From a virus (Duplodnaviria > Caudoviricetes), in the IMG/VR virus record IMGVR_UViG_3300031555_001441, positions 32,001 to 96,000 of that record: a DNA stretch of 64,000 nucleotides; one strand, given 5' to 3'. The position numbers and the translations under genes were made by a program. Shown one piece after another: positions 30,552 to 35,446 of this stretch (position 1 is the first letter of the stretch; the number at the start of each line of letters is the position of its first letter). The notes beneath the pieces are model-generated. The model worked only from the letters and a program-made list of their open reading frames with translations. It was not told where the DNA came from and did not search any database.

Positions 30552-31151
30552 CTATTTAATATATACGTTAGTTGATTTAGATATTTCTTGATAATCAGGT
30601 AACTCGGTGCTGGGAACCACCTCACTTATAGGATTAACTGTTTCAGTAGCACGTCTGCCGTCCCATATTTTCTTAGCTCCCATTATAAGTTCACGACTCA
30701 TTGAGATTTCGTGTTCAATTCGATCAATGATTGTATCGTATGCGGATATAAGAACTTCATGATCTGTCATCTCAGCTGCAACACACTTAAGTATCCAATC
30801 TCGTTTATCAGTAGCTGATAATCTTACATTACCTAAGAGGACTTCACCTTCTGAAAGTTCTACAATACGTTTGTGCCGATGCTCCTTCATACGAAGTTTA
30901 ATAGTTTGTTGTTCTAGCTTAATTGCATTAAGATTCTCAGATACCTCAAATAACTTGAGAGGGAGCGTTGTGAGAATTTCTGTAAGTTCAGAATCTGTTA
31001 TCGGATTGCTATCAGATTGCATCCGTGCTTGCAACTGATAAACAAGTTCAAATGAACTCCTAAATCGAGAGTCATATACATCATTGCAGAATTGTGAAGT
31101 TTCGGAAATATCTTTCTCATAACTATTAAGTGCATCAAACAATGAACCCAT
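30552..31151 (-). CDS. Hypothetical helical protein (possible recombination mediator)
   Basis: Coiled-coil character; next to recA. Confidence 0.5.
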   Translation of the reverse strand: MGSLFDALNSYEKDISETSQFCNDVYDSRFRSSFELVYQLQARMQSDSNPITDSELTEILTTLPLKLFEVSENLNAIKLEQQTIKLRMKEHRHKRIVELSEGEVLLGNVRLSATDKRDWILKCVAAEMTDHEVLISAYDTIIDRIEHEISMSRELIMGAKKIWDGRRATETVNPISEVVPSTELPDYQEISKSTNVYIK

Positions 31152-31152
31152 C

Positions 31153-33498
31153 TTAGTTACCTTCCTTCTTTATAGGTTGCTGACACAAATATGTAAGTGC
31201 TAACTCTTGCTGATATTGACTTACTTTTAACTCTGCGTTCATCTTAACAAGAATGTTTGCCAATCGCAAACAAATTGCAAGATGTGGTTCACTGTACTTG
31301 CTTATTTTATCAGCATAGTGAGCAGGTATCATTGTAGATTCAATGTCTTTCAACAAGATGTATTTAACAACATTCATGATGAACGAATGAAAACTTTCAA
31401 ACCATTTGACAAAGTTAACTCCTGAATTATAAACAACATTCAATATGCTTGCAACAGACTTGTTATCTCGCTTCGCATATGCAGTTAATAGTGCAAAACA
31501 ATCATCGTAATTAGGAAGATTGAGAGCAGCGGTTACATTCTCAGAAGTTAATTCATTGCTATAAGCGAGTGCCTTATCTAACAATGTGAGTGCATCTCGC
31601 ATACCGCCTGAAGCGAGTTTTGCAATTAAACTGATTGCATCTGGAACATACTCTATATTACGACCCTCAGCATTTTCACACTTGATAACGTGCAGAAGCC
31701 TGTTGTAAATACCCTCAGTACTTATTTTAGATAATTGAAATACCTGGACTCTGGATATGATGGTTGCAGGTATTTTCTCTGGGTTTGTAGTGGCAAACAT
31801 GAATACGCTCTTAGCCGGAGGGGCTTCGATAGTTGTAAGCATACTTTGCCAGGAAGCCGAACTGAACGCATGACAATTATGAACTAGCAGCTCATTTGCA
31901 AAATACGACGGATGTCCTGATATCTCCAGGTCATACATTGTTACATACTTTGAATGTAATTCTGAATCTTTGAAACAACTTCGGAACAATTCTTCATTAT
32001 TTCCGCGTTGGTAAATCTCAACACTGTCCACCCTAAATTGTTTAGACATTGCACTTTCTTTGCATCCAACAACCGATGCGATTTCATATTGTGATCTACA
32101 CCATCCACCTCTATTCCGAGAAATATTTCGGGATATGCTAGGTCGAGTGCGTATTTCGAAGGATAGTGATTTGGATTGTTTTTTCGATCTATACCCACAG
32201 TCACGGAGTACTCTAATTTCCATTGAGGTCCTAGCTGAGATTTGAGCAGCATCTGCGGCTTGGTGAAGTGTCCGTTCCCACCACGTGCAACAGGCGGCAT
32301 ATGTAAAGTACCATTTTGCTCTCGCGTCTGGATCATCTTCGCTACTACATCTGGATTGCTCATCGGATTGTGTTGTTTCATACGTTCTGATGCCTGTGGG
32401 CTGGGCCTTCCTATGCTGTAACTGGTTGTCAATGCATAACGACAAGTATTGGAACATGTCTTCTTGTTCAGATTGGAAGAGTTCACTACAAATGAATTTC
32501 CACACCAAGCGCACACACGAGTTATCACAAGTTTCGCAGTTTGTTTTCGCATCCGAATCAGATGATTCGCACATTTCGGAGAGCAGGCTGTTCGTGGATC
32601 GCTGTTTCGAATCTCCATCTGCTTCCCACAAACTGGACAGATAAACATATGCCAGTGTTTTGAATGTTCCTCCGATAATCGTTCCAAATTTGGATTCTGC
32701 GCTCTCCAAACTCCTCCGCACTGCGGTGAGCACGTGATTGAATTCACGCTCTGTGGTGTCCAGAACATCTTTCCACATATTGGACACTTTTTCTGTATCG
32801 AACCAGGATGACGATTCGACATTTCGTTGTGCATATAGATCGCACGACACGCCTTGCTGCATAGCACTTTCTGATCGCTGGCATAACGCACCTCGAACAT
32901 TTTGCCGCATTGTTTGCAACGACGTTGAATCATATAGTTGATCTCCTTGTTGTAAATATTTAGCAGGTATCCACCCGTCATTAGTAAAAAACAAGTGATC
33001 TTGAGTTGTTACTAATCTACGACCTCCTACTGATATAGATATAAGGTTTTCTGGTTTCACTCTGTTCTTGAATACCTGTGTCACCGTCGCTTGACCTGTC
33101 ATGTTATATATGAGGTCTCCCGGTTGAATATCCTTGATTTGTATTTTACCTGCAGGTGTTGATATCCATGTATTTCCAGGAAAACATTCATCGATGATGA
33201 ATACCTTGTAATCACATCCTACTGGATATGCTCTCGCTTGCTGCATTATATCACGAACAGTGTCAACACCACTGTGTGAGGCAGCATCTAGCTCAATAGG
33301 CTCTCCTTTGCCGTTGTTTAAAACACGAGCCATGCATTTTAACAAAGTGGTCTTACCACAACCTGCTGGTCCAATCAACAGGAAATTTCGAAGTTCTAAC
33401 GGCTTAGTTTCACATATGGATTTTAGTATCTTGACCACAGTTCCCTGCTCTGTAACATCATCCCATGTTTTTGGCCTGTATTTATTTGCTAAATTCAT
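31153..33498 (-). CDS. dnaX: Clamp loader gamma/tau subunit (DnaX) with intein
   Basis: LANKYRPKTW, GPAGCGKTT, ELDAASHSG, IIDE|intein|CH, ATTNPEKIPATIISR, GGMRDAL. Confidence 0.92.
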   Translation of the reverse strand: MNLANKYRPKTWDDVTEQGTVVKILKSICETKPLELRNFLLIGPAGCGKTTLLKCMARVLNNGKGEPIELDAASHSGVDTVRDIMQQARAYPVGCDYKVFIIDECFPGNTWISTPAGKIQIKDIQPGDLIYNMTGQATVTQVFKNRVKPENLISISVGGRRLVTTQDHLFFTNDGWIPAKYLQQGDQLYDSTSLQTMRQNVRGALCQRSESAMQQGVSCDLYAQRNVESSSWFDTEKVSNMWKDVLDTTEREFNHVLTAVRRSLESAESKFGTIIGGTFKTLAYVYLSSLWEADGDSKQRSTNSLLSEMCESSDSDAKTNCETCDNSCVRLVWKFICSELFQSEQEDMFQYLSLCIDNQLQHRKAQPTGIRTYETTQSDEQSRCSSEDDPDARAKWYFTYAACCTWWERTLHQAADAAQISARTSMEIRVLRDCGYRSKKQSKSLSFEIRTRPSISRNISRNRGGWCRSQYEIASVVGCKESAMSKQFRVDSVEIYQRGNNEELFRSCFKDSELHSKYVTMYDLEISGHPSYFANELLVHNCHAFSSASWQSMLTTIEAPPAKSVFMFATTNPEKIPATIISRVQVFQLSKISTEGIYNRLLHVIKCENAEGRNIEYVPDAISLIAKLASGGMRDALTLLDKALAYSNELTSENVTAALNLPNYDDCFALLTAYAKRDNKSVASILNVVYNSGVNFVKWFESFHSFIMNVVKYILLKDIESTMIPAHYADKISKYSEPHLAICLRLANILVKMNAELKVSQYQQELALTYLCQQPIKKEGN
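31876..33186 (-). mobile_element. 437-aa intein in the DnaX Walker B (DE|CH)
   Basis: CFPGNTWIST...TTQDHLFFT.DGW...MYDLEI...YFANELLVHN|C. Confidence 0.9.
31941..32933 (-). CDS. Zn-finger-repeat / Vsr-like (DUF559-type) endonuclease overprinted inside the dnaX intein in another frame
   Basis: Four CxxCG(K/N)..CSxxC units, ERMKQHNPM linker, LDLAYP..GIEVDGVDH...D..K..L...GWTVLRFTN; AAGGAGA RBS ahead of ATG 32933. Confidence 0.85.
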   Translation of the reverse strand: MIQRRCKQCGKMFEVRYASDQKVLCSKACRAIYMHNEMSNRHPGSIQKKCPICGKMFWTPQSVNSITCSPQCGGVWRAQNPNLERLSEEHSKHWHMFICPVCGKQMEIRNSDPRTACSPKCANHLIRMRKQTAKLVITRVCAWCGNSFVVNSSNLNKKTCSNTCRYALTTSYSIGRPSPQASERMKQHNPMSNPDVVAKMIQTREQNGTLHMPPVARGGNGHFTKPQMLLKSQLGPQWKLEYSVTVGIDRKNNPNHYPSKYALDLAYPEIFLGIEVDGVDHNMKSHRLLDAKKVQCLNNLGWTVLRFTNAEIMKNCSEVVSKIQNYIQSM

Positions 33499-34330: not shown

Positions 34331-35446
34331 TTACTCCGCTACACTTGAAAGCATTGACGTGCAATCTTTGTTCCAGAAGAGCAGTCCGATGACTACAGAT
34401 TCCTCAAGCATCGGATATATGCAAACTTTATCACCATCGACGTAGTTAGCTACAATGGATTTAAGAGTATCTACTCGGAATTCACCTGTGTATACATCAG
34501 GAGTAATACCAGTTGCAGCTACCTCGCACTTGAGCGTATCTGTATAAAGTTTAACTTGTCCATCTCCTACGGACACAAATATCGTATCTTCAGTCGAGGT
34601 AGAAAGCAATGTTGCTTGCCCTAAGAACTTATTGATTGCAGCTGCGCTCGTTTCAACATAATTCGATACTGGATGCTTCATCATGTTGAGGAATATTGCA
34701 GAGTTATAACTACCTACGCCTTCATCGGTTTCATACTGAGGCTGGAATTCTGATACATATGAATAGCTGTCCAGCTGAAGAGATATCAGATAGCTGCGGT
34801 CATAGCGTGTTAATTTTGCACCTTCAGGAAGTGCATTGAATAGATTCACTATTGTTTCAGAAAGTAGACAAGTTGTCCCAAGATTGCTTCTTTTAGAATG
34901 TGTAAACAAGCTGTTATCAAAATCGCCGACAAGAACATCACCGGTATCACCTATCCACACTTTAGTATATACAGGATGCGTGAAAGACATTGCTATTGCA
35001 AACATCTGATGATCTTTGACAAATCTCCATGCATCTTTGTCAATATCAACAGAGACTCCGGACTGATCTGATACATCCTTTGGGCTATTAAGTTCAAGCT
35101 CAATGCTATCTATCATCTTCGGAAGTGTAAATTTGGATTTACCTGAGTGTAAAACGAGCCCATTCTCTATGAACTCAAGTGTGACTGTCGCGGTTTCAAA
35201 TGTAGACACAAGCTGTTTCAATAAGAGGCTGTCTACAAATATAGATTCAGATGCATCTGCATCGCCAGCACCCTTTACAATCAGTTGCGTTACAATAGAT
35301 TCAGCTTCTAGATTAACTCTGAGCGATGTCTTTGTAGCAGTCAGCTGAGCTAAACAGCTCTTTCTGTAGTACTTTGACACGTTTGAATTGATGATTCCGA
35401 GATTGAGTGCATCGGAAAGCGGTTTTGTGTTGCATGTAAACTGCAT
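34331..35446 (-). CDS. Sliding clamp (beta/DnaN-like)
   Basis: 371 aa; MQFTCNTKPL N-terminus, GKSKFTL; context with clamp loader. Confidence 0.65.
   Translation of the reverse strand: MQFTCNTKPLSDALNLGIINSNVSKYYRKSCLAQLTATKTSLRVNLEAESIVTQLIVKGAGDADASESIFVDSLLLKQLVSTFETATVTLEFIENGLVLHSGKSKFTLPKMIDSIELELNSPKDVSDQSGVSVDIDKDAWRFVKDHQMFAIAMSFTHPVYTKVWIGDTGDVLVGDFDNSLFTHSKRSNLGTTCLLSETIVNLFNALPEGAKLTRYDRSYLISLQLDSYSYVSEFQPQYETDEGVGSYNSAIFLNMMKHPVSNYVETSAAAINKFLGQATLLSTSTEDTIFVSVGDGQVKLYTDTLKCEVAATGITPDVYTGEFRVDTLKSIVANYVDGDKVCIYPMLEESVVIGLLFWNKDCTSMLSSVAE

Follow-up and report, generated by a model that had tools for sequence, protein, structure and literature searches.

The dnaX-like clamp-loader gene of a tailed phage (Duplodnaviria; Caudoviricetes) contains a stretch of about 1 kb that encodes two proteins in overlapping frames of the same strand, and this double coding is genuine, with selection acting on both frames. 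The gene lies in the window analyzed here, 64,000 nt that make up positions 32,001 to 96,000 of the IMG/VR viral record IMGVR_UViG_3300031555_001441 (144,269 bp, rated 96% complete). In the DnaX frame the shared bases form the middle of an uninterrupted intein, and in the +1 frame they form a complete gene for a protein with zinc ribbons and a Vsr-like nuclease domain. Very probably the locus is a composite selfish element, namely, a class-1 intein inserted in the Walker B motif of dnaX (DE^CH, the caret marking the insertion point) with an overprinted +1 nuclease as its homing partner. An original prediction, made from the sequence alone, had proposed a partnership of this kind, and its individual claims are taken up below together with the results that bear on them.

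The intein is defined by its host as well as by its own splicing signature. Matches to clamp-loader/DnaX families (phrog_5846, PF13177, and PF22608) lie at the two ends of the 781-amino acid (aa) DnaX open reading frame (ORF), with Hint/intein models between them: PF14890 (Hint/intein) matches residues 136–541, and PF07591, PF14623, and PF13403 also match. The intein spans Cys105, directly after FIIDE, to Asn541, directly before CHAF (boundaries IIDE^CFPGN ... LLVHN^CHAF), and its insertion point is the Walker B motif, which is restored when IIDE and CHAFS are rejoined. The original prediction had a continuous DnaX frame running across a 437-aa intein at 31876–33186, and both its coordinates and its boundaries proved exact. 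In an alignment of 52 related inteins, C1, H64, and N437 (intein numbering) are invariant and H436 is nearly so; H64 closes the block B motif TxxH (T61-Q-D-H64), H436-N437 is the C-terminal His-Asn pair, and the +1 nucleophile, Cys542 of CHAF, is present after VHN. An AlphaFold2 (AF2) model of the DnaX-frame intein, built on the same 52-sequence alignment, makes both terminal segments beta-rich, and a Hint fold is accordingly predicted to be assembled from the N- and C-terminal segments of the intein. The long middle is of a different nature. Residues 190–500 of the DnaX ORF match no Pfam or PHROG family, as anticipated for a central stretch of ~310 aa without a recognizable domain. An in-frame endonuclease was considered for this region and rejected. 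A split intein was rejected likewise: there is no host-frame stop anywhere across 31876–33186, and the intein of the window lacks the termination and restart that mark a split intein or fractured gene. The GC content of the dual-coding stretch (32000–32900) is 44–47%, above the 33–41% of the flanking dnaX exteins, which contradicts the earlier description of this DNA as AT-rich and fits stop avoidance, foreign origin, or both.

One frame over, the nested ORF in its longest form occupies 31941–32981 on the minus strand (346 aa, start ATG 32981), wholly within the intein. Its offset from the DnaX start, 33498 − 32981 = 517, leaves 1 on division by 3 and thus places it in the +1 frame, on the same strand as dnaX. 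The 330-aa version reading from 32933 to 31941, for which four zinc fingers and a Vsr/DUF559-like nuclease had been proposed, is upheld by the ORF, its translation, and a PF04480 match. The zinc-ribbon region is presumed, on the basis of sequence, to be the DNA-binding part. In the nuclease domain, D280, E291, D293, H297, and D306 (346-aa numbering) are invariant in 58 homologues and agree with the composite EDxHD motif described for this class (Taylor et al., 2011; PMC3239194). A model of the nested protein based on the 58-homologue alignment has a mean pLDDT score (predicted local distance difference test) of 87, rising to 89–98 in the catalytic domain. Its Foldseek matches, both with probability 1.0, are the DUF559 protein 3HRL (target template modeling, TM, score 0.68) and the catalytic domain of I-Bth0305I, 3R3P (0.66), and Vsr itself (1vsr) is a weaker structural match (TM 0.42). 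Profile comparison with the nuclease family recovers the same two structures (3HRL, 2e-12; 3R3P, 9e-4) and aligns the IEVDG..H motif with EV(D)G..(H) of 3R3P. The NUMOD/helix-turn-helix (HTH)-type N-terminal DNA-binding region of I-Bth0305I is not present in the nested protein, and zinc ribbons stand in its place; the nuclease therefore represents a distinct subfamily of EDxHD/Vsr-like homing endonucleases. The whole phage genome holds one intein and one DUF559 gene, both at the dnaX locus. Elsewhere in the same genome, outside the window, a 626-aa open frame (L007; G000:C1:137422–140580) contains a zinc-ribbon stretch resembling residues 111–165 of the nested nuclease (E 1.3e-5), and may be another nuclease sharing the DNA-binding module.

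Selection on the openness of the host frame is most directly seen in its stops. When synonymous codons were shuffled with the nested protein and its codon usage kept (200 shuffles), 20.6 host-frame stops were expected in the window against none observed, and not one of the 200 shuffles was stop-free; the third frame holds 30 stops against 24 expected. The same pattern extends to 76 nested loci, with 0 host-frame stops against 899 expected and, in the third frame, 1443 against 1296. The avoidance follows a simple rule. A host-frame stop requires that a T-ending nested-frame codon precede a codon starting with AA, AG, or GA, and T is found in the third position before such codons in 0 of 84 cases in the window (36.7% T elsewhere) and in 0 of 3958 cases among nested genes (27.7% elsewhere). 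Free-standing and fractured relatives of the nuclease use T at 26.8% of these positions and carry 9–29 stops in the corresponding frame; thus, the stop-free host frame is not a by-product of the protein sequence.

The choice of register can be considered in the same terms. Stops that no synonymous change could remove number 0 in the actual register and 191 in the other register among 57 nested nucleases (5 of them in the window), as when methionine is followed by a residue with an A-initial codon. The +1 frame is the single register in which the nuclease overprints at no cost to its own amino acid sequence. Its constancy across the family may be attributed to stop avoidance by synonymous changes only, or to common descent of the Hint-plus-nuclease unit; descent alone, rather than codon structure, could account for it.

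Selection on the nuclease frame is evident from frame-specific substitution. Estimates of the ratio of nonsynonymous to synonymous substitution rates (dN/dS) by the Nei–Gojobori method for four divergent pairs are, on the same bases, 0.12–0.27 in the nuclease frame and 0.9–1.4 in the host frame, values that are rough because dS is close to saturation (proportion of synonymous differences, pS, about 0.7). Between the window and a related dnaX locus (L008), differences at the first, second, and third nuclease codon positions are 0.31, 0.30, and 0.51, and amino acid identity over the same bases is 58% in the nuclease frame versus 38% in the host frame. From the frame-specific dN/dS and the codon-position pattern it follows that the nuclease is under purifying selection. 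The host-frame linker is selected only to stay open and otherwise changes in a near-neutral manner. The claim of selection on both frames, for which frame-specific dN/dS had been suggested as a check, is thereby sustained, the host frame being near-neutral except for stop avoidance.

The arrangement recurs widely among phages. Searching GenBank phages with the nucleotide sequence of the gene, and scanning IMG/VR with the single nested protein as query, gave no match in either case; the IMG/VR relatives come from an alignment-based scan with at least 597 matched stretches and at least 287 confirmed relatives, of which the best 80 loci were analyzed. In 75 of these 80, a longer ORF on the same strand encloses the nuclease completely, always with the nuclease in the +1 frame and never in +2. 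Seven further phage dnaX genes have an intein at the same site (DE^C...VHN^CH) and the same nested ORF (L008–L015, the identical L011 and L012 counted once). Conserved dual open frames in homologous dnaX inteins, proposed at the outset as a check on the double coding, are accordingly found in all eight same-site dnaX loci as well as in the 75 related loci. One of the eight (L010:1724–5329, in IMGVR_UViG_3300045988_107230) is a 1202-aa dnaX with two inteins, a LAGLIDADG-type intein in the P-loop (GCGK^...) and the Walker B intein with its overprinted Vsr-like nuclease.

Hosts comprise 18 DnaX clamp loaders, 27 SF2 helicases, 14 SNF2 ATPases, and a few unclassified proteins, as clustered on C-exteins alone; with the N-flanks included, all hosts merged into one cluster. 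The intein model is matched by 46 of 55 hosts. Glu-Cys is invariant at the junction, and the site is almost always DE^C...HN^CH, that is, the Walker B motif or DExH box. A tentative assignment of two unclassified hosts (L074 and L084) as terminases was dropped, as a PHROG search gave no family. In four loci (L024, L046, L054, and L055) the intein enters the motif one turn further on (DEAH^CFP... or DEIHK^CFP...), with Ser or Cys as the +1 residue, so that insertion around the Walker B motif or DExH box is not confined to a single point in this family.

The five loci among the best 80 that are not nested are informative in their own right. Three nucleases are free-standing beside helicase genes (L036, L037, and L080). 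L075 is a true fractured gene, its nuclease gene flanked by the two halves of a split intein. In L052 (3357–4178), whose host is SNF2-type and has the intein after DEAH^C, the linker contains exactly one host-frame stop; a recent break, a split intein in the making, or a sequencing error could explain it. The original prediction had taken host-frame stops in homologues as the mark of a split intein; such homologues do exist (L075 and L052), but they are a minority, and the intein of the window is not made split by them.

Cultured phages display the same layout. The nested protein, searched by tblastn in GenBank phages, matched 40 records, and among the 30 matches listed the coding sequence (CDS) over the match was always labeled a helicase or left as an unnamed protein. 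In all five phages examined, Vibrio CP-T1, Pseudomonas MR14, Corynebacterium phi673, Vibrio 1.088.O, and Vibrio 104E43.1, the host of the match is an intein-bearing SF2 helicase, and the matching ORF, 215–263 codons long, is in its +1 frame. The nested nuclease has no annotated feature in any of these loci (L001–L005; JQ177061, MT104474, NC_042354, MG592463, and MW824411), the helicase CDS alone being annotated.

The distribution of the element in dnaX is sporadic. Of the 15 IMG/VR dnaX genes closest to the C-extein of the window (60–69% identity), 12 lack this intein and read an uninterrupted DECH, DEVH, DEAH, or DESH. The presence of such intein-less close relatives is the patchy pattern that a homing element should produce, and means that empty target sites exist. 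Three dnaX relatives with an uninterrupted Walker B motif (L092, L101, and L103) have ORFs of 691, 494, and 640 aa as opposed to the usual length of about 345–360 aa, which suggests further insertions upstream, possibly inteins at a different site. In a quick maximum-likelihood tree, the nucleases group by host type (14 label changes versus 32 in shuffles), and the free and fractured forms fall inside nested clades, with moderate support only.

Taken as a composite selfish element, the locus would operate as follows. In the DnaX frame, the central stretch would serve as a structure-poor, stop-free linker between the Hint halves; being stop-free, it would allow the precursor to be translated as one chain, from which the intein would excise itself to leave a working DnaX. 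The +1 frame of the same bases would yield a separate 330-aa protein, with four zinc ribbons for DNA binding and an EDxHD-type, Vsr-like nuclease, translated alone from the dnaX mRNA from ATG 32933 with a Shine–Dalgarno (SD) sequence supplied by the Gly-Asp codons of Hint. The nuclease would cut intein-less dnaX near IIDE^CH, and repair would copy in the whole element. The host frame would be kept open purely by synonymous choices in the nuclease frame. The separate translation, splicing, cleavage specificity, and homing in this scheme are what we infer from sequence.

The reading that survives best beside this one, though an improbable one, is that the nested ORF is a relic of a once free-standing or active endonuclease and that only the dnaX/intein frame matters now. 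The homing-cycle model predicts decay of an endonuclease after fixation, the gene is single-copy in the genome, and no promoter above chance precedes it; against these points stand 330 intact codons with all invariant catalytic residues kept, substitutions that follow the periodicity and low dN/dS of nuclease codons, a confident fold with a conserved start methionine, and intein-less target alleles that still circulate among close relatives. Alternatively, the nuclease could chiefly serve the phage, for example by cutting the DNA of co-infecting relatives that lack the element and thereby effecting competitive exclusion. It is established that homing endonucleases of phages can exclude the markers of a co-infecting genome, and intein-less relatives with the target motif do co-exist with the element. 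This would be a consequence of the same cleavage activity rather than a separate mechanism, and the present data do not separate the two; as the chief role of the nuclease we give it only a slim chance.

With the composite element as the preferred reading, the means by which its nuclease is made deserve scrutiny. The methionine at ATG 32933 aligns with the first methionine of all eight dnaX-intein loci. Upstream of it, the sequence AAGGAGA, which had been proposed as a ribosome-binding site formed by the Q-G-D codons of the intein, is indeed found (Table 1), and GGAGAT recurs in three other dnaX loci (L010, L014, and L015), the remaining dnaX loci being weaker. With neither a promoter signal above chance nor a significant hairpin found, internal initiation on the dnaX mRNA is the most economical reading, and initiation at ATG 32933 is the most likely source of the nuclease, as judged from sequence features. 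Programmed +1 ribosomal frameshifting, by which the nuclease would be made as a fusion with the N-extein and Hint-N and with no initiation of its own, would accommodate both the +1 register of every nested locus and the quarter or so of loci where the SD motif is weak or absent. It appears unlikely: a start codon lies a few codons ahead of the first CxxC in nearly all loci, and its methionine is conserved in the dnaX group; free-standing and fractured relatives start at the equivalent point without a frameshift; the constant register is explained by codon structure (0 versus 191 unavoidable stops); and no slippery motif is apparent at 32931–32960. That two compensating indels in assembly or sequencing shifted an in-frame endonuclease domain, a worry attached to the original prediction and natural for a metagenome-derived viral contig, can practically be set aside, since an unselected host frame would hold about 20 stops where none is present, T occurs at 0 of 84 such third positions, and the identical layout recurs in independent assemblies (8 dnaX loci and 75/80 related contigs) and in isolate genomes of cultured phages deposited in GenBank by several laboratories.

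Several observations weigh against the composite-element reading, in addition to the near-saturated dS and the possibility of common descent of the register already mentioned. The Foldseek E-values for 3HRL and 3R3P are only 0.014, which is attributable to the query being multi-domain. An SD-like motif precedes the nested start in 58 of 81 loci, a lenient test because the start was picked as the best among several candidates. In some dnaX relatives the SD position holds no more than GGTGAT or GGTTGT. A promoter scan for the nested gene returned 5 sites versus 8.6 expected, that is, below chance, and the RNA hairpin around the SD sequence is not significant (z = −1.14).

A broader proposition is evenly balanced in our judgment. 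The sense +1 zinc-ribbon/Vsr-like overprinted intein would be the default form, and a long-lived one, of a large family of mobile elements, probably monophyletic, at the Walker B DE^CH site of phage clamp loaders and SF2/SNF2 helicases, with its register fixed by the genetic code and with transitions to free-standing and fractured genes.

The dnaX-like gene is part of a replication module, where it is flanked by a UvsX-like recombinase and a Cas4-like exonuclease. The minus-strand genes at 30552–31151 and 34331–35446, which bracket the dnaX/Cas4-like pair, have no PHROG match at 1e-5; one of them, encoding 371 aa, is suspected from its position to be a sliding clamp. Features of the locus are collected in Table 1.

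Table 1. Features of the dnaX-like locus and its nested nuclease gene, in coordinates of the window
Feature	Position	Strand	Basis
dnaX-like clamp-loader precursor ORF, 781 aa, unbroken through the intein	31153..33498	−	ORF list; PF13177, PF22608, phrog_5846 2.5e-70
N-extein, aa 1–104, up to Walker B motif ...FIIDE	33187..33498	−	Intein-less relatives read IIDECHSLS uninterrupted
C-extein, aa 542–781 plus stop, from CHAFSS	31153..31875	−	60–69% identity with C-exteins of related phages
Class-1 intein, 437 aa: Cys1, T61-x-x-H64, His436-Asn437, then +1 Cys	31876..33186	−	Boundaries; PF14890, PF07591; 52-intein alignment
N-terminal Hint splicing subdomain (predicted), intein residues 1–100	32887..33186	−	Block-mean pLDDT 86–98
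Host-frame linker, intein residues about 101–380, stop-free	32047..32886	−	No family match; block-mean pLDDT 36–77, mostly <=55; dN/dS ~1
C-terminal Hint splicing subdomain (predicted), intein residues 381–437, ending VHN	31876..32046	−	pLDDT 89–98
Nested homing-endonuclease gene, +1 frame, 330 aa from conserved ATG 32933	31941..32933	−	pLDDT 87; dN/dS 0.12–0.27
Four CxxC...CSxxC zinc-ribbon modules, aa 22–180 of the 346-aa ORF	32442..32918	−	Translation; zinc-ribbon/treble-clef matches, phrog_1271; weak FCS/MYM-type finger similarity
Vsr/DUF559 (EDxHD-type) nuclease domain	31944..32219	−	PF04480 1.6e-11 (aa 275–343 of the 346-aa ORF)
Shine–Dalgarno-like AAGGAGA, 8 nt upstream of ATG 32933	32942..32948	−	Made by host Q-G-D codons of the Hint 'L..GD' strand

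The concept of an out-of-frame intein endonuclease is already known from two preprints, so that the novelty implied by the original prediction does not hold. In actinophage inteins, antisense LAGLIDADG, antisense VSR-like, and frame-3 Endo VII-like endonucleases have been described (Gosselin, Arsenault, & Gogarten, 2025; bioRxiv 10.1101/2025.01.02.630785), and in cyanobacterial dnaX inteins an out-of-frame LAGLIDADG gene has been analyzed by frame-specific dN/dS (Phillips, DeSimone, & Gogarten, 2026; bioRxiv 10.64898/2026.09.14.751524). Both preprints cite an earlier out-of-frame endonuclease in the Synechocystis dnaX intein (Gorbalenya, 1998, as cited therein). Given this literature, the value of the present locus lies in adding another well-characterized member and the codon-register argument. 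Our literature search found no sense-strand +1 zinc-ribbon/Vsr-like endonuclease in contiguous inteins, nor its prevalence at the DE^CH site in helicases and clamp loaders, nor the codon-register argument.

The cyanobacterial dnaX intein is similar in its dnaX host, its contiguous intein with a low-confidence host-frame linker, the confident endonuclease fold encoded by a same-strand overlapping ORF that has an SD-like motif, and its sporadic distribution with intein-free alleles (Phillips et al., 2026). It differs in having a LAGLIDADG enzyme and a cellular host, whereas the phage locus combines zinc ribbons with a Vsr/DUF559 nuclease in a 144-kb phage and belongs to a family found also in SF2/SNF2 helicases. 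The non-canonical actinophage inteins share an endonuclease outside the intein frame, between the splicing blocks. However, their VSR-like form is antisense and the same-strand example is an Endo VII-like enzyme in frame 3, with no sense +1 VSR-like form listed, and the inteins reside in polymerase, minor capsid, terminase, and thymidylate synthase genes (Gosselin et al., 2025). These architectures are called rare by their authors, while the sense +1 form is the majority state in the present family (75 of the 80 best loci). The same study proposes that a free-standing endonuclease gene invades an intein, and that nucleotide-binding motifs offer a route for switching exteins.

Fractured genes, in which a free-standing Vsr-like endonuclease gene lies between the halves of a split intein (Dassa et al., 2009; PMC2677866), resemble the phage dnaX locus in nuclease superfamily, strand, and residence in phage replication and helicase genes, and in the overlap of the 3′ end of the endonuclease gene with the C-intein coding region. 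They are distinguished by an interrupted host frame and splicing in trans, as opposed to a continuous frame with an overlap of about 1 kb, and the model built on them foresaw in-frame insertion, not out-of-frame overprinting. I-Bth0305I, the EDxHD prototype (Taylor et al., 2011; PDB 3R3P), shares the Vsr-like catalytic fold with its conserved acidic and histidine residues, as well as a bipartite plan of N-terminal DNA-binding and C-terminal nuclease parts. It is intron-encoded and uses NUMOD/HTH elements, unlike the present family, whose members have one to four CxxC...CSxxC zinc ribbons and are nested in an intein; by sequence, the nested nuclease is nearer to DUF559 (3HRL) than to 3R3P. A final parallel is the ShiLan-type HNH insertion in phage methylases, likewise an endonuclease ORF hidden in an alternative frame of a stop-free host frame, but one with an HNH nuclease and without Hint or any other splicing domain, so that the protein retains the insert (Arsenault et al., 2025; PMC11855218).

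Phages seldom have overlapping genes of about 1 kb in which selection on both frames can be demonstrated. The present locus adds to them a second frame selected only for openness, and thus a clean case of synonymous-site selection governed by a single rule, no T before AA, AG, or GA. For inteins, it represents a third route by which a free-standing endonuclease gene comes to partner an intein, beside in-frame fusion and gene fracture, with all intermediates present in the family. Since the nested genes are unannotated in the GenBank phages examined, a common class of homing endonucleases is being missed, and the zinc-ribbon/Vsr nucleases constitute an untapped set of predicted site-specific enzymes aimed at conserved ATPase motifs. 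If the overprinted form is indeed the default state of the family, its nested, free-standing, and fractured members would provide a natural series for how endonucleases enter inteins and how genes break.

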